From Pseudomonadota bacterium (GTDB lineage Bacteria; UBA10199; 2-02-FULL-44-16; JAAZCA01), in NCBI GenBank assembly GCA_016927275.1, contig JAFGMW010000116.1, forward strand, positions 1,456-65,455: 64,000 bases of DNA. The letters run 5' to 3'. The notes beneath the pieces are model-generated. The model worked only from the letters and a program-made list of their open reading frames with translations. It did no database searches and was not told the DNA's origin. Positions within the stretch are counted from its first letter, which is position 1. Each line of letters begins with the position of its first letter. Both the position numbers and the translations under genes were made by a program. Shown in pieces: positions 3,120-62,985 of the stretch.

Positions 3120-4499
3120 TCAGTATCCCTTTGCGATCTCCCTTATCTTCATGATGCAATCCAGCACGTTTTCCGTCTTCGTGCCGCCGGGCTGCGACCT
3201 TCGCTCGACCGCGCTCTCGAAAGATATGCGTTCGGCGAGCTCCGTGTTCGGGACGGGGAGCGCCTCCCTGGACCCTTTGCGCGTGACCTCGTGGACCTGC
3301 ACGCCCATGCGCTCCGCCCGCTCCACCATGCTCGCGGTGGCCGCGTAGGCCTCCCTGAACGGCATGCCCTGCGAGGCGAGAGCGTCCGCCATCTCGGTCG
3401 CCAGTATGTGGCCGCGGCCGAGGAGCTCCCTCGCGCGTTCCCTGTTAAGCGCCAGCCCCCTGATCAGCGGTGTCAGCGCCGACAGGACCTCCCTCGTCTC
3501 GTCGAACGCCCTGATGAAGGTCTTCTTGAGCTCGTGAAGATCGCTCGCGTAGCTGGTTGGCAGAGACTTGGCGATCGAGTGCGCCTCGTTGGAGAGGGAG
3601 ACGATCCTGGCAGCCCTCGCCCTTGCGCACTCGGCGACGTCGGGGTTCCGCTTGTTCGGCATGATGGAGCTTCCGGTGGAGTGCTCCGCGGGCAGATCGA
3701 TAAGCCCAACGGCTGTCGAGGACCAGATGACGATGTCCTCGCTGAGCCTGCCTGTGTGGACAGCGACCGAGGCGAAGGCGTCCATGAGCTCGATCATGAA
3801 GTCGCGGTCCCCGACCGCGTCGTAGCTATTCATGGGGGGTGAGCAAAAGCCCAGCTCCTCGGCGCAGGCAACAAGATCAACTCTAAGCGGGGTGCCAGAA
3901 AGCGCAGCCGAGCCGAGAGGCATACGATCGAGGCATGCATCCCTCGCCGAGCGAAGTCTCCTCAAATCCCGCACGAAGGCCAGCGCGTGAGCAGAGGCGA
4001 TATGGCCGAACGAGACCGGCTGCGCGTGCTGCAGGTGCGTGGTGCCGGGTACGATCGCGTCCGCGCAACGCTCACCCAGGTCGCAGAGCGCCGCCGAGAG
4101 CGACGAGGCGCGTGATGCCGTATCTTCGGCGCATTTCGCCGCGAAGAGCCTGAGGGTCGTCGCCACGAGATCGTTCCTGGAGCGGCCCATGTGCATCTTC
4201 CTGCCGAGATCGCCCGCCTCCCCGGTCACGAACCGCTCCAGGTTCATGTGTATGTCCTCGTCCTCCACCCTCCAGTCAAAGGTGTTGTCCGATATCTTCC
4301 CGAGCGCTCGCTCGAGCAGCCCCAGGACCGCTTCGGTCTCCTCCGGGTCGAGATATCCGCCCCCGCCCAGGGCCCGAGCCCACGCCCTCTGCACGCGGAT
4401 CTCGTGCTGGGCGAGCCTGAGGTCGAACTCGATGCCTCCGGTGAACTCGTACAGCGCCCGCTCGCCGCCCCTGTTGCGATCCGTAATCAGTACGCCCAT
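3120..4499 (-). CDS. argH: argininosuccinate lyase
   Basis: Fumarate-lyase signature GSSIMPNKRNPD. Length (459 aa) and N-terminal layout match ArgH. Confidence 0.95.
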   Translation of the reverse strand: MGVLITDRNRGGERALYEFTGGIEFDLRLAQHEIRVQRAWARALGGGGYLDPEETEAVLGLLERALGKISDNTFDWRVEDEDIHMNLERFVTGEAGDLGRKMHMGRSRNDLVATTLRLFAAKCAEDTASRASSLSAALCDLGERCADAIVPGTTHLQHAQPVSFGHIASAHALAFVRDLRRLRSARDACLDRMPLGSAALSGTPLRVDLVACAEELGFCSPPMNSYDAVGDRDFMIELMDAFASVAVHTGRLSEDIVIWSSTAVGLIDLPAEHSTGSSIMPNKRNPDVAECARARAARIVSLSNEAHSIAKSLPTSYASDLHELKKTFIRAFDETREVLSALTPLIRGLALNRERARELLGRGHILATEMADALASQGMPFREAYAATASMVERAERMGVQVHEVTRKGSREALPVPNTELAERISFESAVERRSQPGGTKTENVLDCIMKIREIAKGY

Positions 4500-4520: not shown

Positions 4521-5732
4521 CTAGCCCAGAGCCTCAGGCTTTCTCCTCCCCGCCTGCCACTGCCTGTAGGAGAGGGTGCGGCAGAACCCGTGCGAGGCCT
4601 TGTTGAGCCCGAACTCATCGTGTTCAAAGCTCACCAGGGCCTTCCCGTAAAGGGAAAAAGGCGATGTCCTACCGGTTATGAACATGTGGCCGTTCTGGAT
4701 CTTGAGGCTGATCGTCCCGGTGAGCACACGGCTCGCCTCGGCGAAGTAGGCTTCTATCGCCTTCCTGGCGTCCGAGTGCCACAGCCCGTCGTAGACCAGC
4801 TCGGCATACCTCCTGCCCAGCTGGGATGATATTCCAAGGACGTTGCGGTCCCAGCACATGTGTTTGAGCACCTTGCAGGCGTAGTGGAGGATCGTTCCCC
4901 CGGGCGTCTCGTAGATGCCGCGGCACTTGATCCCGTTGGTCCGTTCCTCCACCATGTCCGCCACACCTATCCCGTGCTCTCCGCCGATCCCGTTGAGCGC
5001 CTGGAGCAGTCGCGCCGCCGACAGCCTTTCACCGTCGAGGCCGACTGGGATCCCCTCCTTGAACTCGATCGCAACCTCGGTCGGCATGTTTACGCAATGT
5101 GTGTGCGGCCTCGTCCACTCGTATATCCTCCCGGGGTCGAACTCCTTTTCCACCTCCTCGAGTATCTCTCCCTCGCACGATCTGTGGAGGAGGTTCACGT
5201 CGACGCTGTAGACGCTCGAGGCGCCGCCGGCGTCGAAGCCCCTGGACTCGAGGAAGCCGACCAGGTCGCTGCGGCCCTTGTAGTCCCAGATCTTCCACGG
5301 GGCGATGATCTCCATCTCCGGGACGAGATAGGCCCACGCCAGCTCGAAGCGGATCTGATCGTTGCCCTTTCCCGTGCATCCGTGCGCGATTGCGCGGGCG
5401 CCCTTCGCCTTTGCAATCTTCGCCACCCTCTCGGCTATCAATGGCCTGCCGAGCGCCGTGCCCAGCAGGTAGTCGTCCTGGTAGATCGCGCCGGCCCTCA
5501 CCGCCGGGAAGACGTAGTCGCGCGTGAGCTCCTCCTTGAGGTCCTCGAAGATGAACTCCGCTGCGCCGAGCTCCTTCGCCCTGCGCGCGAGCCAACCCTC
5601 GTCGGGCGCGTTGCCGAGGTCGGAGCAGTACGCGATCACCTCCGCGTCGTATTTCTCTACGAGCCACGGGATTATTGCCGATGTGTCCAGTCCGCCCGAA
5701 TATGCCAGCACGATCAGTTTTTTCTCCATCAC
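4521..5732 (-). CDS. argG: argininosuccinate synthase
   Basis: N-terminal AYSGGLDTS PP-loop motif. 403 aa, colinear with ArgG. Located upstream of argH. Confidence 0.95.
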   Translation of the reverse strand: MMEKKLIVLAYSGGLDTSAIIPWLVEKYDAEVIAYCSDLGNAPDEGWLARRAKELGAAEFIFEDLKEELTRDYVFPAVRAGAIYQDDYLLGTALGRPLIAERVAKIAKAKGARAIAHGCTGKGNDQIRFELAWAYLVPEMEIIAPWKIWDYKGRSDLVGFLESRGFDAGGASSVYSVDVNLLHRSCEGEILEEVEKEFDPGRIYEWTRPHTHCVNMPTEVAIEFKEGIPVGLDGERLSAARLLQALNGIGGEHGIGVADMVEERTNGIKCRGIYETPGGTILHYACKVLKHMCWDRNVLGISSQLGRRYAELVYDGLWHSDARKAIEAYFAEASRVLTGTISLKIQNGHMFITGRTSPFSLYGKALVSFEHDEFGLNKASHGFCRTLSYRQWQAGRRKPEALG

Positions 5733-15474: not shown

Positions 15475-15568
15475 CTGAGAACCCCTTGAGAAGCTAGAAG
15501 CCAGACGCTAGAAGCCAGATAAAAACAGGTGTCTTAGGCTCTGGCATCTCAATTCTAGCATCTAGCCT

Positions 15569-16852
15569 CTAGCTTCTGCATATCTTCTTCACACCCGCCA
15601 TATGCGGCACAAGCGCCTCGGGCACGGTCACCGAGCCGTCGGCCTCCTGATAGTTCTCGAGTATGGCGATGAGGGCGCGGCTTATCGCGACCGCGGTGCC
15701 GTTGACCATGTGCACGTGAATCGGCCTCTTCTCCCCCTCTCGCCTGAAGCGGATGCCGAGCCTGCGGGCCTGGTAGTCGGTGCAGTTGGAGGTGGATGTC
15801 ACCTCGCCGAACTCCCCGCCCTCGCCGCGTCCGGGCATCCACGCCTCCAGGTCGTATTTGCGGTACGCCGGCCCGCCGAGGTCGCCGGTGCAGATGTCCA
15901 TGACGCGGTAGGGGATGCCCATCGCCTGGAAGAGGTCCTCCTCCATCCGCACGAACTCCTCGTGCGTGCGTTCCGATTCCTCCGGTGTCGTGAAGGCGAA
16001 CATCTCGACCTTGGAGAACTGGTGCACGCGGTAGAGCCCCTTGGACTCGCGGCCCGCGGCGCCGGCCTCGGTGCGGAAGCAGTGCGAGACCCCCGCGTAG
16101 CGGAGCGGGAGATTCGCCTCGTCGAGCACCGTGTCGGAGAGCATCCCGCCGAGGGTGATCTCCGCGGTGGCGATGAGGCAGAGGTCGGTGTTCGCCACCG
16201 AGTAGATCTGGGTCTCCTCGCCGCGCGGGTTGAAGCCTATGCCGTCGAGGATCGACTCGCGCGCCATGTCCGGCGTCGCCACCGGCACGAAGCCGGCCTT
16301 GACAAGCCTCTGGAGCGAGAAGTTGATGAGCGCCTGCTCCAGCAGCACCGCCTCGTTCTTCAGGTAGTAGAACTTCTGGCCCGCGACCTTGGCGCCGGTC
16401 TCGAAGTCGATGAGATCCAGCCTTGCGCCGAGCTCGAGGTGGTCGAGAGGCCTGAAGCCGAACTTTCGGGGCTCCCCGTGCCTGCGGATCTCGCGGTTGC
16501 CCTCTTCGGTTGCGGCCACAGGCGCGTCCGGGTGCGTCATGTTGGGGATCGATCGCATGAGCGAGTCGAACTCCGCTTCGATCTGCGCGACCTGCGCCTC
16601 CGCGTCCTGGATCTCGGCCTTCTGCGATTTGCCCTCCGCGATGAGCCTCTCGCGCTCGGGCTTCTCCATCCCGCCCTTCATTCTGGACGAGAGGTCGTTG
16701 AGCGCTCGACGCATCTCCTCGAGGCGCGTGATCGCCTGCCTGCGCCCCTCGTCGAGCGAGGTGAAGCGGTCCAGATCGACCCTCGCGTTTCTCGCCAGGC
16801 AGTTGGCCCTGACGGCGTCGAGGTTCTCGCGTATGAATTTGGGATCGAGCAT
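15569..16852 (-). CDS. serS: seryl-tRNA synthetase
   Basis: N-terminal coiled coil followed by class II aaRS core motifs (FRTEAG..., GIPYRVMDICTGDLG, NGTAVAISRALIAILENYQ). 427 aa. Confidence 0.95.
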   Translation of the reverse strand: MLDPKFIRENLDAVRANCLARNARVDLDRFTSLDEGRRQAITRLEEMRRALNDLSSRMKGGMEKPERERLIAEGKSQKAEIQDAEAQVAQIEAEFDSLMRSIPNMTHPDAPVAATEEGNREIRRHGEPRKFGFRPLDHLELGARLDLIDFETGAKVAGQKFYYLKNEAVLLEQALINFSLQRLVKAGFVPVATPDMARESILDGIGFNPRGEETQIYSVANTDLCLIATAEITLGGMLSDTVLDEANLPLRYAGVSHCFRTEAGAAGRESKGLYRVHQFSKVEMFAFTTPEESERTHEEFVRMEEDLFQAMGIPYRVMDICTGDLGGPAYRKYDLEAWMPGRGEGGEFGEVTSTSNCTDYQARRLGIRFRREGEKRPIHVHMVNGTAVAISRALIAILENYQEADGSVTVPEALVPHMAGVKKICRS

Positions 16853-16864
16853 AAAATAAAACCA

Positions 16865-16937
16865 GGCTGAGGCTGAGGTTTAGGTTGAGTGACCTTATAA
16901 CTTAACCTAAACCTTAACCTAAACCTAAACCTAAACC
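16865..16937. repeat. hexanucleotide tandem-repeat hairpin element, (GGCTGA/GGTTTA)n facing (TAAACC/TTAACC)n
   Basis: Left arm ggctgaggctgaggtttaggttgag and right arm cttaacctaaaccttaacctaaacctaaacctaaacc are mutually near-complementary hexamer arrays. Located between the DsbA-like gene and serS. Confidence 0.7.
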
Positions 16938-16942
16938 TTCAA

Positions 16943-21793: not shown

Positions 21794-21846
21794 ATGTACA
21801 ACAAGGCTGAGGTTAAGGCTTAGGCTAAGTGGTGCTCAACCTCAAC
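21794..21846. repeat. hexamer tandem-repeat hairpin, (GGCTGA/GGTTAA/GGCTAA)n facing (CAACCT)3, between convergent genes
   Basis: ggctgaggttaaggcttaggctaag ... ctcaacctcaacctcaacctg. Sits between the protease stop (21731) and the glnA stop (21858) and likely acts as a bidirectional terminator. Confidence 0.65.
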
Positions 21847-21857
21847 CTCAACCTGAT

Positions 21858-23726: not shown

Positions 23727-23805
23727 TGGTCGGGGTGAGAGGATTTGAACCTCCGACCTCACGGTCCCGAACCGTGCGCTCTAAACCAAGCTGAGCTACA
23801 CCCCG
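23727..23805 (-). tRNA. tRNA-Pro (anticodon CGG)
   Basis: The reverse complement cggggtgtagctcagcttggtttagagcgcacggttcgggaccgtgaggtcggaggttcaaatcctctcaccccgacca folds as a cloverleaf. Acceptor stem CGGGGUG/CACCCCG, anticodon loop UUCGGGA, 3' CCA encoded. Confidence 0.85.
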
Positions 23806-23930: not shown

Positions 23931-24947
23931 ATGGCCATGGGGGGTAAAAAAATCAAGGTTAAGGTTAAGGCTAAGGCTAAGGCTAAGGCTAAGGTTAAGC
24001 CTAAGCCTAAGCCTAAGCCTAAACTTAAGCCTAAACCTAAGCCTAAACCTAAGCCTAAACCTAAACCTCAAGTTAAGGCCAAATTGCCTGAGTGGCCGCC
24101 CCCCCTTGAGATCTACTCTTCAACGGATCCGCTCTCTCTGATGCGCAAGGTGCTGGCCCGCTGCGACCAGGCTTTTCTATCGCGCCAGGTCTCATATTCG
24201 CTCTCCACCTCAGAGGGGCTGGGGGAGGTGTGGGTGGACGAGGAGGGGATATCCTCTGCGATGGACACCCTTCTCATGCACCTTGTTTCGCGTTCCCCTC
24301 GCAAATCGGTGATCTCCGTGCAGCTTTGCCCGTTCGCCATGCACAGCGGCTCAGGCGTTCAGATCGCCTTTGAGGCCATCGACAGGTTGATCAGGGACGT
24401 GGACCACAAGGCGTTCATGGCCTCGATCTTCGACGGGGGGGCGGACCAGGAGACCGGCGTCTCGCTCGCCGCCCTGAGGGAGAGGGTGATGGCGCAGCAC
24501 GGAAGGCTCTGGGCGGAGCTGCCGGGCGGGAACAGGACCCTGTTCAAGATAGTGCTCCCCTCGACGAGGGACGTGGCCAGGCAGGCCCTTCTCGGCCAGC
24601 GCACCTTCAGGTGCGACATCGCCATCACCAACTACCCGCTCGTGAGAAAGCGCTTCGGCCTGATGAAGGGCAGGCACCTAGTGGAGCAGGTGGAGCGCTA
24701 CGTGAAATCGCTGGTGAGGTTCCCTATCGACATGGTGACCGCGGACCTCGACGCAGGCAGCATCACCGCGATCTACGAGGCCCAGCCGGGGGCCGCGGAG
24801 TCGGTCTACTCCCGCATATCCAAGAGGCTGGGGCAGGAGACCTTCCACATCGGCAAAAGACCGGTGGAGCTCCTCTTCAGGTACGAGCTCAAGGGCGGCG
24901 CCGGCCATTCTGCGCCATCGGCCGGCCGAAACCGGGGGAAAGGCTAG
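23931..24947 (+). CDS. hypothetical protein with Lys-rich (KV/KA/KP)n N-terminal tail and a degenerate histidine-kinase-like ATPase (HATPase_c-like) domain
   Basis: Residues 7-50 (KIKVKVKAKAKAKAKVKPKPKPKPKLKPKPKPKPKPKPKP) are encoded by GGTTAA/GGCTAA/GCCTAA hexamer repeats. Downstream, ETGVSLAALRERVMAQHGRLWAELPGGNRTLFKIVLP resembles the HATPase G2 box. Confidence 0.5.
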   Translation: MAMGGKKIKVKVKAKAKAKAKVKPKPKPKPKLKPKPKPKPKPKPKPQVKAKLPEWPPPLEIYSSTDPLSLMRKVLARCDQAFLSRQVSYSLSTSEGLGEVWVDEEGISSAMDTLLMHLVSRSPRKSVISVQLCPFAMHSGSGVQIAFEAIDRLIRDVDHKAFMASIFDGGADQETGVSLAALRERVMAQHGRLWAELPGGNRTLFKIVLPSTRDVARQALLGQRTFRCDIAITNYPLVRKRFGLMKGRHLVEQVERYVKSLVRFPIDMVTADLDAGSITAIYEAQPGAAESVYSRISKRLGQETFHIGKRPVELLFRYELKGGAGHSAPSAGRNRGKG

Positions 24948-30418: not shown

Positions 30419-30724
30419 GTGTTGACCGGGGGGCGGATTGGTTATAAAGGCGGGGGCATGGCGAAGAAGAAGGCCAGGGGGCGCAGGAAACCGGCGGGCG
30501 GTTTCGATCTCGAGTTCTCGATCGAGGAGGACGGCCTGCTCCGCGGGCTCATGGACTCCAAGGGCAAGAAGGTCGAGGTCATAGCCTTCGGCATCGTCTA
30601 CTCGGGGGTCTTGGAGAGCGTGGACCTCGACGGCGGCCAGATCGTGATCGCCGACGGAGAGGACCGCGCGATGATCGAGATCGAGCGCATAGAGTCGCTC
30701 ACCCCCCTCGAAAACTACCTATGA
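30419..30724 (+). CDS. small hypothetical protein (101 aa, or 88 aa from MAKKKARG)
   Basis: ORF with basic N-terminus. Its stop overlaps the next start (ATGA at 30721-30724). Confidence 0.35.
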   Translation: MLTGGRIGYKGGGMAKKKARGRRKPAGGFDLEFSIEEDGLLRGLMDSKGKKVEVIAFGIVYSGVLESVDLDGGQIVIADGEDRAMIEIERIESLTPLENYL

Positions 30725-31092
30725 AGCGGGCCGCGGCGGTCTCACTTGCACTGTTTGTCATCGCATCCTCTCTCTGCGCGCTGGCGGGGGAGCAAGGAGG
30801 GGCCGCATCCGCGCGGGCGGAGGAGTCGGGGTTCGCGATCATTATCCTCGGCACGCGCAGCGCGGCCGACGTGAGGGTCATCGAGAAGAACCTGCGCTCG
30901 CTCCCGTACGTATCGCTCATGGTGCCCACGGTCATGAGCCAGCAGCACCTCGAGTTCCAGGGCAGGATGAGCGCCTCCGACGAGGCCATGGTCGCGGACG
31001 TGGCAGGGCTTGCGCAGGACCGCTACGAAGTGAAGGCCCGCCGCGAGCACAGGCGGGGGCTGGTGATAACGCTGAGAAAAATCAAGGGATGA
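30721..31092 (+). CDS. small secreted hypothetical protein, 123 aa
   Basis: N-terminal signal peptide MKRAAAVSLALFVIASSLCALA. Translationally coupled to the preceding ORF. Confidence 0.4.
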   Translation: MKRAAAVSLALFVIASSLCALAGEQGGAASARAEESGFAIIILGTRSAADVRVIEKNLRSLPYVSLMVPTVMSQQHLEFQGRMSASDEAMVADVAGLAQDRYEVKARREHRRGLVITLRKIKG

Positions 31093-31160
31093 GAGGCTGA
31101 GAGGCTGAGAAGCTGAGAGGCTGAGAAGCTGAGAGGCTGAGAAGCTGAGAAGCTGAGAAG
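31088..31160. repeat. (GAGARGCT)9 octamer tandem repeat
   Basis: gagaggctgagaggctgagaagctgag... begins at the stop codon of the upstream small gene. Every unit contains TGA, so stops occur in all three frames. Confidence 0.7.
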
Positions 31161-31172
31161 CAAAGAAAAGGC

Positions 31173-31200
31173 CCTGCTGAGCAGGGCCTTGTTTTTTGCT
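31173..31200. terminator. bidirectional Rho-independent terminator between convergent genes
   Basis: aaaaggccctgc-tgag-cagggcctt-gttttttg: GC-rich 9-bp stem with an A-tract upstream and a T-tract downstream. Confidence 0.7.
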
Positions 31201-31210
31201 CCTCATCGGC

Positions 31211-33433
31211 TCACCATACTCCGCCCATGGTTAAAGTGAGCGCGGAGAAGGCGTCTCCAGGGCCGTATGCCCGCAGCAGCTCGTCGCCGATGTCGAAGAC
31301 GTATATCGCGGCGCCCATTTCGAGCAGACGGCTGCCGCTTCGGACAGCTGCGATGAGCAGTTCAGGCTGTCCGTCGTTGAACATGTCCCCTGGCGTGAAC
31401 ATGAGGGCGCCCAGCATCTGGTCGTTTTCGAACAGCTTTGGCGATGCGGCGCCTGTGAAGATCGCGTTGGCCTGTTCCGCGCCCCTGTCGTCCCATAATT
31501 TGCTCGATCCCATCCCTTCCTCGCCCAGGTAGAGGTAGACCTTTCCGCGGTAGATTCTGTAGATGTCGTCCCCGACCTCCACCGTAGCCGGGAGCATCAT
31601 CGGGGCGCCCACGACGAGATCTGCGCGGCCGTCGTTGTTGTAGTCGTCGGCGATGATGTTGAACATGTTGAATATTGCGTATCCGTCCCCGGTCCTCTCG
31701 GCTGAAATCTTCGCGTGCAGGTCCTCCTCCGCTTCGCTGAGCGGCACTAGCGAGAGGCTGGCCGGCCAGGGGCTGCGGCCTGACAATATGTGCACCTCGG
31801 CCGGGTCGTACTCCGGGAGTATCGCCTTTACAGGCACCGAGGGGTTGACCTCGTTGGTAATGCCCACGATCAGGTCGTCGAGCGCCATGGCCGTGTCCTC
31901 GCGGGCGTCGCCGTCGAGGTTCGCGATGAAGACGGTCTGGATCATGTCTGGATAGAGCCCGCTGCTGCCCACGGCGGTGATAACCGAATCGGGATTGTCG
32001 ATCACGCCGCCCTCGACGGTGCCCTTGAATATCTTCACCACGTTCTTCTCGAGCGAGCTGTCGTAGATGACGACCGCTATGTCGTTCAGCGGCTTGCCTG
32101 TCTCAGGGTTCATGTCGCCGTCGAGGTTGCCCCACCCGATCGACGGGTAGTAGGGGAATTGCATCAGTCCCAGGGGCAGGTCGAGGCCCTCGGTCCACTG
32201 CCGGTAAATCGCCTGCGACATGGGGAATCCCTGGATCGGTATCACCACGTCCGCGTCCGCCGTGGAGATCCTGCCGGCGAATTTGCCCGGCCCGCCGAAG
32301 AATATCGTTATGTAGGTGTAGTAAGAGAAAATCAGAGAGGAGCCGGCCTCAATCTTGCCGGCATCGAGGTCGGGCTGCTCCATGGTGGTCATGACAAACG
32401 GGAGATCGGCCTCGCCGTCGCCGTTGAAGTCGAAGACCCTGCCCTCGGGGCGGATGAGCGGGAACGCGATCACGAGGCTTGAGTCCAGCTCGCCGTCGTC
32501 GTCGTCATCTGCCACGAATTCAGCCACAGGGCCGGCGGCCGGGTCCTCGAAGTATAGATAGCTCCAGCGCGTGTCCTTGATCTCCGACCCGCCGGGATCC
32601 GGGACTGGAACCGGAACCCCACCCCCGCCTCCGGAAGTTTTCCCGACCGAGACCGCTTCCGCAGGGGGAGGTTTTACAGGTTTCGCGGTGAAGATGTCCT
32701 GGCAGGCGTCCGGAGTTCCCACGCGGCCAACCAGGTATTTCTGATAATCCACCTGCTGGAACTGAGGGATGGTGATGCTGAAGGCAGGGGAGCCGACTTT
32801 GCATCCCTCAGCGTCAAAGGGGTCCATGTAGAACCGCCCGGACTCCGCTCCAGTGAGCGCGATCTGCTCCAGCATGCCCATCAGGTCGATGATGTTGTCC
32901 TCTTCGGAAGGCGGTATGAGCGATTCTTCGCCTATTATGAAGCTCATTCCCATAAGGGCCAGGAGGAAGTCGGCGTTTTTGCCGTCCACGAGCGACATCG
33001 GATTGGGCGGAGAATCCACTGCATACTCGCCGTCCGGGACTGCGGCGCCGTCCGCGAACGCAAGCCCGCTCCAGGCCACCCTGTATCTTATGCTGTGCCT
33101 GGTCCTGCCGAAGAACTTCGCCCAGGTGCCGTCGCTTGCCATTATCATGCGGTTTATGGCGACCGGGATTCCGGTCAGATCCTCCGCGATGGAGAAATTG
33201 GAGGCGTCAACGGCCCTGGATGGCGAGGTCGTCAGCGATACAGGGGCGTCGAAGCGGAGTATGACGGCCTTTCCGTCGAACTCGGCGTACGTGCCGGCCG
33301 GGGTCGTGTCGTCGCCTCCGTCTCCGCCGCCGTTATCGGTATCGACCGAACCCAGCTCGCCGCCGCCGCAGGCAGCGAACAGCGTCAGGGCGAATGCCGC
33401 TCCGACCACGCAAGCGAGTCTTGATATCTTCAT
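31211..33433 (-). CDS. FG-GAP/integrin-alpha-like repeat lipoprotein
   Basis: Lipoprotein signal MKISRLACVVGAAFALTLFAAC. Repeated Ca-binding DxDxDG-type motifs (FNGDGEADL, NLDGDARED, NNDGRADLVVGAP). Confidence 0.7.
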   Translation of the reverse strand: MKISRLACVVGAAFALTLFAACGGGELGSVDTDNGGGDGGDDTTPAGTYAEFDGKAVILRFDAPVSLTTSPSRAVDASNFSIAEDLTGIPVAINRMIMASDGTWAKFFGRTRHSIRYRVAWSGLAFADGAAVPDGEYAVDSPPNPMSLVDGKNADFLLALMGMSFIIGEESLIPPSEEDNIIDLMGMLEQIALTGAESGRFYMDPFDAEGCKVGSPAFSITIPQFQQVDYQKYLVGRVGTPDACQDIFTAKPVKPPPAEAVSVGKTSGGGGGVPVPVPDPGGSEIKDTRWSYLYFEDPAAGPVAEFVADDDDDGELDSSLVIAFPLIRPEGRVFDFNGDGEADLPFVMTTMEQPDLDAGKIEAGSSLIFSYYTYITIFFGGPGKFAGRISTADADVVIPIQGFPMSQAIYRQWTEGLDLPLGLMQFPYYPSIGWGNLDGDMNPETGKPLNDIAVVIYDSSLEKNVVKIFKGTVEGGVIDNPDSVITAVGSSGLYPDMIQTVFIANLDGDAREDTAMALDDLIVGITNEVNPSVPVKAILPEYDPAEVHILSGRSPWPASLSLVPLSEAEEDLHAKISAERTGDGYAIFNMFNIIADDYNNDGRADLVVGAPMMLPATVEVGDDIYRIYRGKVYLYLGEEGMGSSKLWDDRGAEQANAIFTGAASPKLFENDQMLGALMFTPGDMFNDGQPELLIAAVRSGSRLLEMGAAIYVFDIGDELLRAYGPGDAFSALTLTMGGVW

Positions 33434-44332: not shown

Positions 44333-44401
44333 ATCCGTGACTCGTGACTGGCGCAAGCACGCTAGTCACTAGTCACTAGTCACGAGTTGCCAGTCACGGC
44401 T
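44333..44401. repeat. inverted tandem-repeat hairpin built from GTGACT units between convergent genes
   Basis: cgtgactcgtgactggcgcaagcacgctagtcactagtcactagtcacgagttgccagtcacgg. Left GTGACTCGTGACTGG is complementary to right CCAGTCACG. Central (TAGTCAC)3. Confidence 0.6.
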
Positions 44402-45556: not shown

Positions 45557-45870
45557 GGGAGCCGGTCTTCGCAATGACCACCACGAACAGGGCGGACGAG
45601 GCGCGCTCCATCGCCGAGCTCGTCGTCAAGGAGGGGCTCGCCGCCTGCGTGCAGATAGTGCCGAAGATCGAGTCGATCTACGAGTGGGATGGGAAGATTC
45701 ACGCGGACCAGGAGCACCTGCTGCTCATCAAGACGTTCGAGGACCGGATCGGCGCGATCAAGAAGATGATCGAGGAGAAGCACAGCTACGAGGTCCCGGA
45801 GTTCCTCGTGGTCCCTGTGATCGACGGCGCTAAGGATTACCTCAAGTGGATGGAAGAGGGCACCAAATAA
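45553..45870 (+). CDS. cutA: divalent-cation tolerance protein CutA
   Basis: 105 aa. Conserved CutA1 blocks (ACVQIVPKIESIYEWDGKI...EHLLLIKT). ATGA overlap with the upstream gene. Confidence 0.85.
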   Translation: MREPVFAMTTTNRADEARSIAELVVKEGLAACVQIVPKIESIYEWDGKIHADQEHLLLIKTFEDRIGAIKKMIEEKHSYEVPEFLVVPVIDGAKDYLKWMEEGTK

Positions 45871-45876
45871 GCACCA

Positions 45877-45925
45877 ATGACCAAATTCCGAACTGAGCCT
45901 TTGTTCGGTCATTGGTTATTTGGAA
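45877..45925. terminator. hairpin plus T-rich tract after cutA (likely bidirectional with the convergent peptidase gene)
   Basis: ccaatgacc-aaat-tccgaac...gttcgg-tcattgg followed by ttatttggaatttgttatttgg. Confidence 0.55.
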
Positions 45926-45953
45926 TTTGTTATTTGGTGCTTGGAGTTTGCGG

Positions 45954-46676
45954 TTATCCGGCGCCGATTATTCTCCCCACCTTGGGGCCAGTCCCGTCCC
46001 TGGAAGCGAATATCCTCTTCGCTGTCTTCATGGCGCGCTTCTCCGCCTCGAAGGCCTCCCGGAGTATCGCTGCGCGCGTGGCGAAGTTGTGGTACTTGTG
46101 GCAGGGGAGCCTCTTCTCCTTCTTGCGCCTGTCGATCTTCTCCAGGAAGCCGATCATCGGCTCCACCGAATAGCCCATGAGGAACATGACGCGCCCGGAG
46201 AAGGCATCCGCGTCCCCCTCCTCCTCGCGCCTGATCGCGTGCAGCCGGTCCCAGGAGAGGTGCGACCAGTCGACCCCCTTCGGCAGATCGCTCATCATGT
46301 GGCCCCACTCGTGGGCCACTATCCCGGCGATCAGCTCCTCGTCCCCGCCGTGCTGGGCGAGGAAGTCCACGCCCACGTAGAGGTTGTCGTCCTCGTCGAC
46401 CGAGGCGATCGTGTTCCTCGCCGGTATGATCTTCCCGCCCTTCTTGCGGGAGAAGAGGGAGAGCTTCTTGCGGAGACGCTCGAGCAGCCCCTTGGGCGCG
46501 AAAAACGCCGCCACCTCGGGGGGGAGGGTCTCCGGGTCCACGATCTCGGGTATGGGCTCGCCGAGCAGCTTCTTTATCTCGGTGGCGTTGGCGATCGTGC
46601 CGCCGCGCGACACGGCGCGGCTGATCCACGCGGGCGGCATCTCCGCGAGCTTTGCATGTATCTTCTCTATGCCCAT
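45954..46676 (-). CDS. putative zinc metallopeptidase (HExxH motif)
   Basis: IAGIVAHEWGHMMSD contains the HEWGH zincin motif. Start chosen at MGIEKIHAKL (GAGGGACAGGA upstream). Family not assigned. Confidence 0.55.
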   Translation of the reverse strand: MGIEKIHAKLAEMPPAWISRAVSRGGTIANATEIKKLLGEPIPEIVDPETLPPEVAAFFAPKGLLERLRKKLSLFSRKKGGKIIPARNTIASVDEDDNLYVGVDFLAQHGGDEELIAGIVAHEWGHMMSDLPKGVDWSHLSWDRLHAIRREEEGDADAFSGRVMFLMGYSVEPMIGFLEKIDRRKKEKRLPCHKYHNFATRAAILREAFEAEKRAMKTAKRIFASRDGTGPKVGRIIGAG

Positions 46677-46794
46677 GGGGTATCCTGTCCCTCTATTGTA
46701 CATTATCGGCATGAAAATCAAAATGTTTCGCGATATTAATGATTAGCAGCATTGACATTGATAATTGTTGCCTGTTCCTTTTCAAAAGGGCCTT

Positions 46795-46978
46795 ATAACT
46801 CGTGGCTTCGGGGCCTGTCAGCGGGTCGGGGGACACTGTCTCGCTACGGCTCGTTCGCTCAGGCGCCGCTCACTCGCCTGCGTCTCTTCGCCGCGGTCAT
46901 CGCAGGGCTCTTGATTCGCGGCGAATTCACACGCCGCTCAACAGGGTCCCCCGACCCGCTGACACCCGAAGCCTCCAA
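46795..46978. repeat. MITE-like element upstream of queG: ~33-nt near-identical terminal inverted repeats flanking ~95 nt
   Basis: Left arm ggcttcggggcctgtcagcgggtcgggggacactgtc. Right arm acagggtcccccgacccgctgacacccgaagcc. The interior contains ctcgctac/ctcgttcgc motifs resembling the 29940-30360 element. Confidence 0.55.
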
Positions 46979-46990
46979 GGTAATAGAGTG

Positions 46991-47830
46991 ATGAAGGAGC
47001 TGATAAAGAAGAGGGCGATCGAGGTCGGTTTTGCGCTGTGCGGGGTGACCACGGCCGAGCCGGTCGATGAGCTTGCGCATCTGCAGGGGGCGATTGCAAA
47101 CGGCAGGGTCGCCTCGATGAACTATCTGGCGCGCGACCCTGCGGCGCGCTGCGACCCGCGTTCGCTCCTCGCCGGCGCGCGCTCGGTGATATGCTGTGCG
47201 CTTGCGTACGGCGAATCGGGGATCGGCGACCGGGGATCGGGGACCATGGATCGGGAAAGCTCTTTCAGGTCCCGGGTCCCGGGTCCCGGGTCCCGAGTTT
47301 TGAGGGCCAGGTTCGCGCGCGGGGCCGAGTATCACGCGGAGGTGGGGCGGAGGCTTACGCTACTGTGGGATGCGATTCGAGAGCGGGCGCCCGGCGCCAG
47401 CGCGAAGGCCTGCTGCGACACGAGCCCGATTCTCGAGAAGGCCCTGGCACAGCGCGCTGGGCTGGGCTGGATCGGCAGGCACACGGTGCTGGTGAACCGC
47501 GAGCTGGGCTCGTGGTTCGTGCTGGGCGAGATCGTGACCGATCTCGAGCTCGAGCCGGACTCCCCGCACGATGATCTCTGCGGCGACTGCACAAAGTGCC
47601 TGGACGCCTGCCCTGCGCGCGCGATCCTCTCGCCGCGCACGCTCGACGCCCAGAAGTGCATCTCCTATCTCACCATAGAAGCCCCGCGCCTTGAGATTGG
47701 GATCGGGGATCAGGGATCAGGAACCGGGAGAACCCTTCCATGTCCCGGGTCCCGGGTCCCGGGTCCCGGGTACGGCTGCGACCTCTGCCAGGAGGCATGC
47801 CCTTATAACAATAGAGGATGCGCCCAATAG
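46991..47830 (+). CDS. queG: epoxyqueuosine reductase (QueG)-like, carrying two in-frame repeat insertions and an apparently short C-terminus
   Basis: DUF1730-like N-terminal region, then two 4Fe-4S motifs CGDCTKCLDACP and CDLCQEACPYN. Insertions at 47213-47300 and 47700-47785 are both in frame. The ORF stops 6 codons after the second cluster, whereas QueG proteins are usually ~100 aa longer. Confidence 0.7.
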   Translation: MKELIKKRAIEVGFALCGVTTAEPVDELAHLQGAIANGRVASMNYLARDPAARCDPRSLLAGARSVICCALAYGESGIGDRGSGTMDRESSFRSRVPGPGSRVLRARFARGAEYHAEVGRRLTLLWDAIRERAPGASAKACCDTSPILEKALAQRAGLGWIGRHTVLVNRELGSWFVLGEIVTDLELEPDSPHDDLCGDCTKCLDACPARAILSPRTLDAQKCISYLTIEAPRLEIGIGDQGSGTGRTLPCPGSRVPGPGYGCDLCQEACPYNNRGCAQ

Positions 47831-48136
47831 CGCCCACTCTGCCGCTTTGATGAAACGGTTCAGGGTGCTTTTCGCAGCGTGGCTCGAGCCTGCCTGCCGG
47901 CAGGCAGGGAGGCCGGATTCAGCAGCCTATAAGTACCGGCCGACGAAAGCCCCCGATGACCTTCAGACAGTCTGGTTCATCTAATGATGAAATGCCGGGG
48001 CGTGGGGACTGCGCCCCGGCCGAGACGGCGTTTGAGGCGAGGAGGGATAGCGAGAAAAGCACCTTGAACCGTTTCGTCTGCTGAGTCAGCCTTCCCAGGT
48101 TGACATGTGAACGGGGAAGGGCCTAGCGCGTGGGAC

Positions 48137-53777: not shown

Positions 53778-54214
53778 GGCGCCACTATAGGCAAGCAGGG
53801 ACCTCAAGGCAAGCCCGGCCTTATCAATCCGGAACGCATGTTTGCTTGGTTCGGCGACGGATCGGGAAAGACTGCCGAGCGGCGTCAGGAGGCGTCGCTT
53901 TCAAAGCCTATGGTGCTGCGGCGCCGAGTGCGCAGGCGAGCGAACGGCGTATGAGTGAGCGAGCCGTAGCGAGGAGGCTTTCCCGATCCGTCGCCGTGCC
54001 CGAAGCAAAAAAAGGACCCTCCAACACTATCGCTGAAGGGCCCAAAGGGGGGGGTCGAACTTTGTGACTCCCGATTTCTCTCTTCGCTTCCACAGTAGTT
54101 ATCGGCAGGGAGGGGTACCCAAGTTGCGTGGGCCGCAAAAAATTCCCACAAAGAGGTAACCATTTGTTTTAATTAAGTTTTACTGCGAAAATGGGTTTTT
54201 TTCGGCAAAAAATT

Positions 54215-58938: not shown

Positions 58939-59015
58939 CACGTAACCTGTGACCTGTAACCGGTGGTAAATGACAGGATGTTAGACCGGTCACGGGTCAC
59001 GTGTTACGTGTAACG
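58930..59015. repeat. inverted tandem-repeat hairpin built from GTGAC/GTAAC units
   Basis: cacgtgacacgtaacctgtgacctgtaaccgg ... ccggtcacgggtcacgtgttacgtgtaacgg. Located between the sigma-54 regulator stop and the polX start. Confidence 0.6.
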
Positions 59016-59022
59016 GTTGCCA

Positions 59023-60837: not shown

Positions 60838-62985
60838 GTGCTATCAAAACTCTTCACACCACGATCGGTGGCGGTGGTGGGGGCGTCCCGCGAGGAGGGC
60901 AAGGTCGGGCATTCCATCATGAAGAACCTGGTCGGCCACGGATTCGCCGGCCCCATCTATCCGGTCAACCCCAAGGCGAAGGACGTGATGGGGCATCCCT
61001 GCTTCAAGGACCTGAGGGACGTGCCCGACGGCTGCGACCTGGCGGTGATCGCGGTGCCAGCGAGGCTCGTGCCGGGCATCGTAGAGGAGTGCGGGCGCAA
61101 GGGGATCGGCGCCGCGATAGTCATATCGGCGGGGTTCAAGGAGGTGGGCGGGGAGGGGGCGGATCTCGAGAAGAGGCTCTTCAACGCGGCCATGACCAGC
61201 GGCGTGAGGGTGCTGGGCCCCAACTGCCTCGGCCTCATCAACACCAGGCACCGCCTCGACGTCTCGTTCGCCGCCAGCCACCCCGAGGAGGGGGACATAG
61301 CGGTGATCTCCCAGTCCGGCGCGCTGTGCACCGCGATAATAGACTGGTCGGTCAGAAACCACATAGGATTTTCAAAGCTCATAAGCATCGGCAACAAGGT
61401 GGACATAGACGAGGAGGTGCTGATCGAGGAGCTGGGCGAGGACGACGACACGAAGGTGATCGTGGGTTACCTGGAGAACATAGTCAACGGACCGCACTTC
61501 ATGCGCTCGGCAGAGCGCGTGACCAAGCGCAAGCCGATCATACTCATCAAGGCCGGCAACACGGCGGCCGGCGCCGCGGCTGCGTCGTCCCACACCGGGA
61601 GCCTCGCCGGGGCGCGCATGGCCTACGAGTGCGCGTTCCGAACCAGCGGGATATTGCAGGCGTCCTCCCTCGAGTCGCTCTTCGACTACGCCCAGGCGTT
61701 CTCCTACCAGCCGCTGCCGCGCGGCAGGAGGGTCGCGGTGGTGACCAACGCCGGCGGGCCGGGGATCATGGCCGCAGACGCGGTCGAGAACTCCGGGCTG
61801 GCGTTCGCGAAACTCGGCGACGAGACCACGAAAGCCCTCTCCTCGTTTTTGCCGGCCGCGGCCAACATCCACAATCCGGTCGACATACTCGGCGACGCTC
61901 TGGCCGAGACCTACGGCAGGGCGCTCGAGGCGTTGCTGGCCGACGACGGCGTGGACGCCGCGGTCGTGCTGCTGACGCCCCAGGCGATGACCGACGCCGC
62001 CGAGGCCGCGCGCGTTGTGGCCGGGGTCTCGGGAAGACACGGGAAACCCGTGGTCGCCTCTTTCATCGGCGCGGACCGCGTCTCCCTGGGCATAGAGATA
62101 CTGCAGAGGAGCAGGGTGCCGCACTATCCGACCCCCGAGCGCGCGGTCGAGGCGCTGCAGGTCATGGCCGAGTTCGCGAAGTGGAAGGAGAGGCCTCCGA
62201 GGGTTATCCAGCGCTTCTCGGTCAACACCACTAAGGTGGACAGGGTGCTCAACCTCTGTCGCAAGCGTGGCCAGTTCAACGTGGGTGAGCAGGACTCGAA
62301 GGCGATACTCGCCGCCTACGGTTTCACGGTGCCGAAGGCCTCTCTCGCCAGGAGCGCCGACGAGGCGGCCTCCGCCTCGGCAGCGATAGGATTCCCCGTG
62401 GTCATGAAGATCGTCTCTCCAGACATAATCCACAAGTCGGACGTGGGAGGGGTGAAGGTCGGGCTGGCCGGATCCTCGGAGGTGAGGGACGCGTACGATC
62501 TCATGATTGCCAGGATACGCCTCCGAGAGCCCCGTGCGAGGCTCCAGGGCGTTCTCGTGCAGGAGATGGTGGGCGGGGGCCGCGAGATAATCGTCGGCAT
62601 GACGCGCGACCCCCAGTTCGGCCCCATGCTCATGTTCGGGCTGGGCGGGGTCTACGTGGAGGTCCTGCGCGACGTGTCGTTCCAGCTCGCACCCATCACC
62701 CGCGACGAGGCGTTCGAGATGCTCATCGGAACCAAGACATACAAGTTGCTCAAGGGCGTGCGCGGCGAGAAGTCCGTGGACATGGAGCTGGTCGCGGAGT
62801 GCATAAGGAGGATATCGCAGCTCTCGATGGACTTCCCCGCGATCGAGGAGCTGGACATAAACCCGCTCAACGTCTCGAGCGACAGGGCCGGCGCGGTCGC
62901 GGTGGATGCGCGCATTAAAATCCGGGACTCGGGACCCGGGATTCGGAACTCGAAACTTCAGGGGTGTGACCATGGCTCAGAATGA
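60838..62985 (+). CDS. acetyl-CoA synthetase (ADP-forming) / NDP-forming acyl-CoA synthetase, fused alpha+beta
   Basis: N-terminal CoA-binding domain (SVAVVGASREEGKVG), succinyl-CoA-synthetase-like ligase domain, and C-terminal ATP-grasp domain. 715 aa. Confidence 0.8.
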   Translation: MLSKLFTPRSVAVVGASREEGKVGHSIMKNLVGHGFAGPIYPVNPKAKDVMGHPCFKDLRDVPDGCDLAVIAVPARLVPGIVEECGRKGIGAAIVISAGFKEVGGEGADLEKRLFNAAMTSGVRVLGPNCLGLINTRHRLDVSFAASHPEEGDIAVISQSGALCTAIIDWSVRNHIGFSKLISIGNKVDIDEEVLIEELGEDDDTKVIVGYLENIVNGPHFMRSAERVTKRKPIILIKAGNTAAGAAAASSHTGSLAGARMAYECAFRTSGILQASSLESLFDYAQAFSYQPLPRGRRVAVVTNAGGPGIMAADAVENSGLAFAKLGDETTKALSSFLPAAANIHNPVDILGDALAETYGRALEALLADDGVDAAVVLLTPQAMTDAAEAARVVAGVSGRHGKPVVASFIGADRVSLGIEILQRSRVPHYPTPERAVEALQVMAEFAKWKERPPRVIQRFSVNTTKVDRVLNLCRKRGQFNVGEQDSKAILAAYGFTVPKASLARSADEAASASAAIGFPVVMKIVSPDIIHKSDVGGVKVGLAGSSEVRDAYDLMIARIRLREPRARLQGVLVQEMVGGGREIIVGMTRDPQFGPMLMFGLGGVYVEVLRDVSFQLAPITRDEAFEMLIGTKTYKLLKGVRGEKSVDMELVAECIRRISQLSMDFPAIEELDINPLNVSSDRAGAVAVDARIKIRDSGPGIRNSKLQGCDHGSE

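Follow-up and report, generated by a model that had tools for sequence, protein, structure and literature searches.

Heptameric simple sequence repeats (SSRs) of the GGGNATC type are known from Xanthomonas and Nostoc, where they form arrays of 2–26 units with four units preferred (Rehm et al. 2015, PMC4692102). In Xcc and Xac, 70–75 of the ∼185 repeats of this type are convergent inverted pairs that are capable of forming stem-loops, most of the repeats lie at most 50 bp from a stop codon, typically just past it, their sequence is capable of forming G-quadruplexes (G4s), and 7–11% of the GGGAATC repeats of Xanthomonas are intragenic (PMC4692102). Here we describe two elements made of such heptamers that lie in frame within queG, the gene for epoxyqueuosine reductase, in a 64,000-nt stretch (the window) of a metagenome-assembled genome (MAG) of a Pseudomonadota bacterium (contig JAFGMW010000116.1, positions 1,456–65,455). 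A preliminary description of this DNA likened them to Rickettsia palindromic elements (RPEs), which, following Ogata et al. in 2000, are said to be unique-sequence families of 100–150 bp with many dispersed copies in Rickettsia genomes. RPEs have been reviewed (PMC10969869). We consider it probable, at roughly 60%, that the two elements are instead passenger heptamer-SSR hairpins that expanded and became homogenised in place within two unconstrained loops of a QueG without the HEAT-like domain, and that the protein puts up with them because they keep the frame, contain no stop codon and encode disordered segments.

Other described repeats share single features with these elements. Fast-evolving perfect tandem repeats in open reading frames (ORFs) yield new disordered segments in Borg proteins (PMC9879509). 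Intragenic units of Borgs are reportedly multiples of three and arranged as direct repeats. The TAACTGA heptamers of Beggiatoaceae and cyanobacteria are direct repeats that are mostly intergenic; their stop-containing orientation is kept out of ORFs, and the stop-free one has been found within the frame of an RpoC-like protein, in a variable loop at its surface (MacGregor 2015, PMC4679880). Repetitive extragenic palindromic (REP) sequences and REPINs are abundant, hairpin-forming imperfect palindromes of 20–40 bp with GTAG/CGTC heads, which are extragenic and are mobilised by RAYT transposases (PMC3116915, PMC3733652).

Heptamer hairpins in two loops of a short QueG

The queG coding sequence (46991–47830, plus strand) encodes a protein of 279 aa that starts with MKELIKK, a short-form epoxyqueuosine reductase with the Cbl-binding and double [4Fe-4S] domains and no C-terminal HEAT-like domain. 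This product (MBN1283698.1, from the MAG that NCBI names 'Proteobacteria bacterium'; the window has 63% G+C) scored 229.8 bits against the QueG profile TIGR00276 (cut-off 200) over profile positions 1–245 of 337, contains the Pfam domains QueG_DUF1730 and Fer4_16, and matches the PDB QueG entries 5d08 and 5d6s with an E-value of 1e-34. An AlphaFold2 (AF2) model built on a 107-sequence alignment has a mean pLDDT of 86.4 with a core above 90, and the top Foldseek matches of this model were the QueG structures 5d0b, 5d08 and 5d6s (TMq 0.74 to 5d0b). The Cbl-binding domain, the two 4Fe-4S motifs and the catalytic Asp loop that define QueG are all present. Moreover, the reading frame is intact and every invariant QueG residue is kept despite both elements, namely the eight Cys, D143 and Y114/H115, which bears out the earlier statement that both 4Fe-4S Cys motifs are undamaged. 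The HEAT-like tRNA-binding domain was not found in the window QueG, in which the profile match stops at 245 of 337 and the chain ends 6 aa past CPYN. The possibility that the inverted repeat downstream has cut queG short was discarded, since close homologues are almost without exception just as short: the short form is clade-wide, nearly all of the best ∼97 homologues being 200–320 aa long, and judged from these sequences the HEAT-less clade appears to be large (about 100 of the best matches).

Both elements have the same layout, with a left arm of the (GGGGAYC)n type, a short, likewise palindromic tip and a (GGTCCCG)4 right arm without mismatches, and the ORF passes through them in frame in the stretches ...CCALAYGESGIGDRGSGTMDRESSFRSRVPGPGSRVLRARFARGA... 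and ...YLTIEAPRLEIGIGDQGSGTGRTLPCPGSRVPGPGYGCDLCQEACPYN. The site-1 hairpin (47216–47296, plus strand) encodes roughly SGIGDRGSGTMDRESSFRSRVPGPGSR. Its left arm (47216–47257) consists of degenerate (GGGGAYC)-type units (CGGGGAT, CGGCGAC, CGGGGAT, CGGGGAC, CATGGAT and CGGGAAA, in this order) and was reported by Tandem Repeats Finder (TRF) as an array of period 7 at 47215–47255 with 5.9 copies and 70% matches; its right arm (47268–47295) is a perfect (GGTCCCG)4 (period 7, 4.0 copies, 100% matches). The site-2 hairpin (47697–47769, plus strand) encodes roughly IGIGDQGSGTGRTLPCPGSRVPGPG; its left arm (47699–47727) is (GGGATCR)3 followed by a degenerate GGAACCG unit, with a TRF array at 47699–47721 (period 7, 3.3 copies, 93% matches), and its right arm (47742–47771) is a perfect (GTCCCGG)4.3 (period 7, 100% matches). 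Thus the two in-frame palindromic elements of the preliminary description, with their coordinates and peptides, were recovered from the sequence, the ORF translation, TRF and folding. To call them 'near-identical' was too strong: the right arms agree in 28 of 28 nt, left arms and tips have diverged, and the overall similarity is 75–83%. They are nevertheless the best dispersed repeat pair of the 64 kb (71 nt at 83% identity), and six of the eight occurrences of the 14-mer GTCCCGGGTCCCGG with at most one mismatch, against 0.12 expected in the window, fall within the two sites. No third full copy of the element exists in the 64-kb window, and neither element has a target-site duplication, the flanks GTACGGCGAA|...|GTTTTGAGGG and CGCCTTGAGA|...|GTACGGCTGC having no common direct repeat.

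In the QueG of Bacillus subtilis, the HEAT-like RNA-binding domain is supported by two extended loops, the Cbl-insert (Tyr77–Asp104) and the Fd-insert (Ile215–Gly239) (Dowling et al., PMC5175355). In the alignment to the PDB QueG, the stretch that begins with the Tyr in ALAYP and ends with the Asp in GKDYH comprises exactly 28 residues, and the one that begins with the Ile in CISFL and ends with the Gly in YGCD comprises exactly 25, matching the two inserts in ends and length. The Cbl-insert corresponds to Y73–E113 of the window protein and contains site 1, and the Fd-insert corresponds to I224–G262 and contains site 2. Because the HEAT domain is missing, these loops are without their partner in this clade. 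The AF2 model has pLDDT values below 50 at residues 85–87 and 90–97 (site 1) and at 242–246 and 248–253 (site 2), so that both segments are predicted to be disordered surface loops. At site 2, the element of the window QueG replaces a native segment of 17 aa (HKGxxPxxxxxFxxxGx); distant QueGs, full-length ones included, retain this 17-aa segment as [HL][KR]Gx[IL]P...G.R[IV], and therefore the element took the place of a segment and did not interrupt a contiguous chain. The supposition that homologues are contiguous at the insertion points has to be given up more generally, because canonical QueG has native loops at both positions (28 and 25 residues in B. subtilis), and hence the elements enlarge or replace loops and split no continuous chain.

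As sense RNA, site 1 folds with about −55.4 to −56.2 kcal/mol (z −3.5; equalled by none of 200 shuffles) and site 2 with about −45.4 to −45.7 kcal/mol (z −1.4; equalled by 20 of 200 shuffles); antisense folding is weaker (−39.2 kcal/mol for site 1 and about −33.8 to −34.0 kcal/mol for site 2). The sense hairpins of both elements consist of 6-bp blocks interrupted by single G/G mismatches. They contain more G.U pairs than their antisense counterparts (5 versus 0 at site 1, 6 versus 1 at site 2), and the advantage of the sense strand is due to these 5–6 G.U pairs between left-arm GGGAUC and right-arm GGUCCC, which are A.C mismatches on the other strand. The 110-nt stretch 47191–47300 has the lowest plus-strand folding energy of the whole window; the sliding-window scan of minimum free energy is dominated by G+C content and was used only for this minimum at site 1. 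Canonical G4 motifs number six in the whole window and are carried by both right arms, at the level of the motif and with formation only predicted: GGGACCCGGGACCCGGGACCCGGG is on the antisense strand of both sites, and site 2 has a motif on both strands. A terminator scan found no terminator at either element, and we therefore dropped the reading as an attenuator. Only two tRNAs were found in the window by an Rfam search at the gathering threshold, and a relaxed search around queG gave one meaningless miRNA match (E 0.65).

Variation among orthologues and origin of the elements

Orthologue DNA was taken from independent metagenomes and amounts to 86 loci, in which the synteny DUF3467–queG–dinB is conserved (locus L002 from ENA is the same as L127 from JGI). 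The site-1 loop is absent in P0002/L002/L127 and in P0004, which read CCATAY|RFSRGA; because the native YGxxGI...RA flanks of P0002 and P0004 are also gone, this is a deletion and not an empty site. P0005/L006 and P0008/L129 have non-repeat sequence at both sites, with HKGxLPxxMxRFxxxG at site 2. Single-arm direct heptamer tracts occupy both sites in L003, with (GAGTCCC)n, and in L004 and L005, with (GAGTCAC)n, and are translated as PESRVPS and HESRVTSH, the latter being a (CACGAGT)n tract. Hairpins like those of the window are present at both sites of L001, with units GGGACCA/GGTTCCA and GGGACCR/GGTCCCG, and heptamer hairpins at site 2 are found in L002 and L138, with right arms GATCCCN and GGWTCCN, respectively. 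An unrelated palindrome, translated as PLLCKEGxGEVD...PPLTKGG, is located at site 1 in L005, L131, P0014, P0018, P0022, P0023 and P0035, and yet another unrelated palindromic element, VIARSEATKQS, at site 1 of P0013. Judged from these sequences, repeats of at least four kinds appear to have colonised the QueG loops recurrently. A frameshifted queG allele was seen in none of the 86 loci.

Two of these orthologous regions carry further repeats. The PLLCKEG element consists of three hairpins with the core CCCCTCCTTTGTAAGGAGGGG and lies in frame at site 1 (5540–5640 in L005, about 4230–4330 in L131), and the palindrome is also found outside queG in related contigs (L135/L137 at 2716 and 3972; L136 at 868, 2124 and 5463); its sequence makes it a better candidate than the heptamer hairpins for a truly RPE-like mobile element. 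In L129, a perfect (TTAGGGA)10.6 array (3923–3996) ends 5 nt before the start codon of the repeat-free queG.

The preliminary description regarded both segments as insertions, and in close orthologues they are indeed absent or different, P0002 and P0004 being without the site-1 loop, but other orthologues have heptamer tracts or hairpins at the same sites. Because the latter are 55–75% identical in protein, the repeats would have evolved in situ over a long time and would not stem from two recent insertions. Moreover, the site-2 element and its L002 orthologue share the left flank and the left arm (41 of 45 nt), and the site-2 element thus predates a split at 74% protein identity. Within a genome, sites 1 and 2 are 0.75–0.77 identical, compared with 0.64 for the orthologous site-1 pair, and this higher likeness suggests concerted evolution or a unit peculiar to the genome. 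In a neighbour-joining tree of 60 QueGs, the repeat-free P0005 and P0008 stand between hairpin-bearing lineages; the tree is too weak for counting gains and losses.

The gene core is conserved with orthologues at codon positions 1+2 (identity 0.81–0.92) and much less so at position 3 (0.50–0.66), whereas the elements reach 0.70–0.79 at positions 1+2 and 0.62–0.81 at position 3. Against L002, third-position identity is 21/26 in the element and 69/138 in the core (p = 0.005). Because the codon-position signature of a core under purifying selection is missing from them, the elements evolve as nucleic acid and not as peptide. Their structure also varies in a particular way: RNAalifold over six elements retained 25 pairs with one double compensatory change, and the variation is mostly GC↔GU↔AU (13 G.U variants versus 4 A.C breaks). 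Tandem repeats, however, align ambiguously, and the same pattern would arise if transcription favoured C>T changes on the non-template strand. The sense-strand advantage is not universal either, the L002 hairpin folding with −58.1 as sense versus −62.4 kcal/mol.

The units found within queG, GGGGATC, GGGGACC, GGTCCCG, GAGTCAC and GAGTCCC, have no stop codon in any of the three frames. Every frame of the complement of GAGTCAC contains stops, and only one arm is present in the orthologues that use GAGTCAC. Wherever both arms of an intergenic hairpin of the window were tested, at least one of them has stops. The same reasoning on a stop filter has been published for the TAACTGA heptamers (PMC4679880).

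If the elements are passengers that grew in place, they would be inverted pairs of heptameric SSRs, a GGGNAYC-type unit with its complement GRTCCCG, of the class known from Xanthomonas and Nostoc, and they would have been extended and homogenised by replication slippage, together with template switching or conversion between the arms and between the sites. The Cbl-insert and Fd-insert loops, which cradle the HEAT-like domain in canonical QueG, would be largely unconstrained in the HEAT-less clade. The elements might then persist because their units have no stop codon in any frame, because selection would let pass only length variants that are divisible by three, and because peptides rich in Gly, Pro, Ser and Arg would form disordered surface loops and leave the fold undisturbed. 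They would act as nucleic-acid entities, in the form of stable sense-mRNA hairpins, and would be passengers at the level of the protein. Several observations weigh against this model, which presumes both an origin by slippage or template switching and neutrality. Slippage is inferred. The identity of the right arms in all 28 nt and a likeness that is higher between paralogous than between orthologous elements leave room for a recent double insertion or conversion. Third-position conservation above that of the core could mean a functional constraint on RNA or DNA structure and not neutral homogenisation. Finally, pair-preserving variation and the sense-strand G.U bias fit selection for an mRNA hairpin, a signal that is suggestive and weak.

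A recent double insertion would imply that a discrete non-autonomous mobile palindromic element, similar to RPEs, REPs or MITEs (miniature inverted-repeat transposable elements), was placed twice in frame into queG, which we consider improbable. Such an origin would account for two copies that form the best repeat pair of the window, share identical right arms and are more alike than orthologous site-1 elements, and for the lack of site 1 in the closest orthologues P0002 and P0004; moreover, site 1 of other orthologues does hold a dispersed REP-like palindrome, PLLCKEG, that is also situated elsewhere in related contigs. However, the elements are wholly tandem heptamers without target-site duplication or a third full copy, the site-2 flank and arm in common with L002 (41/45 nt) are older than the split at 74% protein identity, more distant orthologues have single-arm tracts at the same two positions, and the loss of native flanks in P0002 and P0004 speaks for deletion and not for an empty site. 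The terminal inverted repeats with target-site duplication that characterise MITEs are not seen in the queG elements. The likeness to RPEs thus stands as far as the elements are palindromic, in frame, in surface loops and similar in effect on the protein, but not in their construction from tandem heptamers throughout, without target-site duplication or a further full copy in 64 kb.

It is about as doubtful that the hairpins or G4s are functional cis-elements of queG mRNA or DNA, which could make ribosomes pause for cofactor insertion, tune the stability of the mRNA or act as a 7-nt phase-variation switch for Q modification. Consistent with a cis-acting role are the conservation at the nucleotide and not the protein level, the sense-strand G.U bias with pair-preserving variation, the very stable structures (−56 and −46 kcal/mol), the presence in both right arms of canonical G4 motifs, of which the window has only six, and perfect four-unit arrays that fit the published preference for four units. 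Yet one or both elements are dispensed with in P0002, P0004, P0005 and P0008, units and arm numbers vary freely among orthologues, many of which are one-armed and hence have no hairpin, and the same heptamer pair occurs in unrelated genes of other phyla; there is no terminator-like signal, and no frameshifted queG allele was seen among the 86 orthologue loci. A wider proposal, again of low probability, is that stop-free heptamer hairpins are cross-phylum, RPE-like, in-frame colonisers of housekeeping enzymes (QueG here; HrpA, UvrD, PurL, MetH and IcmF in Xanthomonadales), which would be preserved as nucleotide sequence, either through some active process (hairpin-templated conversion or a dedicated enzyme, for example) or through selection for sense-strand mRNA structure, and which would repeatedly make disordered loops at the same permissive sites.

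We find it very unlikely that the repeat-encoded Gly/Pro/Ser/Arg-rich loops are adaptive, for example by binding tRNA in place of the HEAT-like domain. The loop positions support the RNA-binding domain in canonical QueG, this clade is without that domain and the peptides contain Arg; but the elements have no codon-position signature of purifying selection, the peptides are unrelated among orthologues (HESRVTSH, PGSRVPG, PLLCKEG... or none), site 1 is completely deleted in P0002 and P0004, and the segments are predicted to be disordered. A chimeric palindrome in the assembly, as errors of assembly or amplification can create in a MAG contig, has a negligible probability, since independent assemblies carry homologous hairpins at the same sites (L001, L002 (ENA) = L127 (JGI), L138) and the ORF is intact.

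Other repeats of the window and of related loci

Among the tandem repeats in 535 kb of QueG-clade loci, a period of 7 is the most frequent; these loci contain 52 period-7 arrays of at least 2.8 copies, often as inverted pairs with diverse units. The window has ten period-7 arrays, four of them in queG, one in a C-terminal tail and the others intergenic. About eight further tandem-repeat hairpins or tracts lie in the window, mostly just 3′ of genes, the gene positions being taken from a rough map based on G+C at third codon positions. Intergenic examples are an (AGAAGCY)n/(AGCTTCT)n hairpin (15489–15581), (AGGYTR)n hairpins (16864–16939 and 21803–21854), a (GTGACTN)/(NAGTCAC) hairpin (44340–44395), a tandem-repeat hairpin at 45860–45950 and a (GTRACCT)/(GGTYACG) hairpin (58940–59016); single arrays lie at 31090, 56293 and 62923. 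An (AAGGCT)n(AAGCCT)n hexamer hairpin (23955–24077) is in frame at the N-terminus of the ORF 23931–24947, where it encodes KVKVKAKAKAKAKVKPKPKPKPKLKPKP...; its more stable fold is that of the minus strand (−68.8 versus −52.3 kcal/mol), on which the neighbouring tRNA-Pro (23727–23805) is also encoded. For five of six unambiguously oriented hairpins, RNA in the orientation of the neighbouring gene gives the better fold, and the intergenic tandem-repeat hairpins may be REP-like 3′-end structures.

The period-7 array in the C-terminal tail is a single-arm heptamer tract of the CGGGACT type (62920–62952), which forms the tail RDSGPGIRNSKLQGCDHGSE of the gene 60838–62985 and stops shortly ahead of the following start codon (62972). 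At 31090–31161, the octamer TGAGARGC is repeated nine times; these copies directly follow the stop of the gene 30721–31092, and a GC-rich hairpin with a T-run is located at about 31170–31200. A pattern match at 32592 was rejected, being a hexamer-coded Val-Pro linker (VPVPVPDPGG) without a heptamer tract.

Around queG itself, a structured repeat of 171 nt (46805–46975, plus strand) is situated directly upstream of the start codon, with a folding energy of −97.4 kcal/mol (z −7.7) and outer arms of 24 nt. A second copy lies at about 53860–54010 on the minus strand and an orthologous one at 4547–4700 of L002; the three copies have a conserved core and compensatory changes in the outer stem and belong to no Rfam family, and the repeat could be an unannotated non-coding RNA or a MITE-like element. 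Also upstream, a divergently transcribed DUF3467 gene is found in L002, L003, L004 and L005, and the divergent neighbour in the window is 45954–46721. Downstream, the queG–dinB spacer of 277 nt contains a 25-nt inverted repeat around 180 nt (47849–48078; −128.9 kcal/mol, z −7.2), and the same spacer holds a 76-aa ORF in L003, the gene of an OmpA protein in L005 and almost nothing in L002.

Relation to described repeat systems

A scan of contigs with (GTCCCGG)3 gave at least 120 stretches, mostly from Xanthomonadales and also from Actinobacteria and Acidobacteria. Among the matches listed, no stretch was related to the window by blastn, the tracts often formed plus/minus pairs about 170 nt apart, and 18 of 149 tracts (12%) were within long coding-like ORFs, in agreement with the published 7–11%. 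All six tract-bearing ORFs that were checked against Pfam are genuine enzymes: an IcmF-like mutase, HrpA (in two genomes), UvrD, PurL and MetH. In Rhodanobacteraceae, Lysobacterales and Xanthomonas, in-frame (CGGGACC)n/(GGTCCCG)n inverted pairs are present in the IcmF-like mutase, HrpA and UvrD (GPGTRDPGP...GPGSRVPGP), the fused mutase having its pair between the B12 and MeaB domains; PurL and MetH have single tracts in frame. These tracts in other bacteria are located at 2624–2799 of L030, 1201–1392 of L058, 776–907 of L096, about 5940–6030 of L117, 5118 of L072 and 5830 of L022.

Thus heptameric SSR hairpins, usually seen as intergenic curiosities, can reside in the genes of conserved enzymes, where their translation yields disordered loops. 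What lets them survive there appears to be simple: the units are stop-free in all frames, the length is a multiple of three and the loop is free of constraint. In the HEAT-less QueG clade, the loops that cradle the tRNA domain would have turned into hypervariable landing pads for repeats, which offers a marker for studies of how short QueGs recognise tRNA. For annotation, Gly/Pro/Ser/Arg-rich segments with a 7-aa period in enzymes (such as PGSRVPG, HESRVTS and GPGTRDP) should be taken as repeat-derived and not as functional motifs. The repeat class itself has already been described; the case is noteworthy mainly for the mapping to the Cbl-insert and Fd-insert loops and the apparent recurrent colonisation of these loops.

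The described systems differ in how close they come to the queG elements. REP and REPIN sequences share a niche 3′ of genes with the intergenic tandem-repeat hairpins of the window; no GTAG/CGTC head of the REP type is visible in the queG elements, which are intragenic, and a RAYT gene was not searched for. In contrast to the Borg repeats, the window unit has 7 nt and gives a peptide with a period of 7 aa, and its arrays stand in inverted pairs. The TAACTGA repeats differ in being direct only, AT-rich and of another unit, with inverted pairs essentially absent. With RPEs, the window elements have in common that they are palindromic, form hairpins, are in frame and place a peptide at a surface position while the fold stays intact; they differ in being built from a repeated 7-nt unit, in having single-arm precursors among orthologues and in giving no sign of transposition. 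Nor do they form a dispersed family of unique sequence, the arms being period-7 arrays with no third copy in 64 kb and the other hairpins of the window having unrelated units.

The closest match is the class of GGGNATC SSRs. The window unit GGGGATC literally fits GGGNATC, the heptanucleotide STRRs of cyanobacteria are named alongside this class, and the queG elements share with it at least two tandem units of the GGGNATC or GGGANTN-like kind (GGGGATC, GGGGACC or GGGATCA on the left, complement-type GGTCCCG on the right), four-unit right arms (4.0 and 4.3) and convergent inverted pairs; within the class they fall into the intragenic minority. Consequences for proteins were not analysed by Rehm et al. 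(PMC4692102). Two further differences concern the host, an uncultured 'Proteobacteria bacterium' MAG with many other units (AGAAGCY, GTGACTN, AAGGCT and others), and the position of the pairs, which in the window lie in the middle of the gene for one conserved enzyme, at two separate loops, and are translated.

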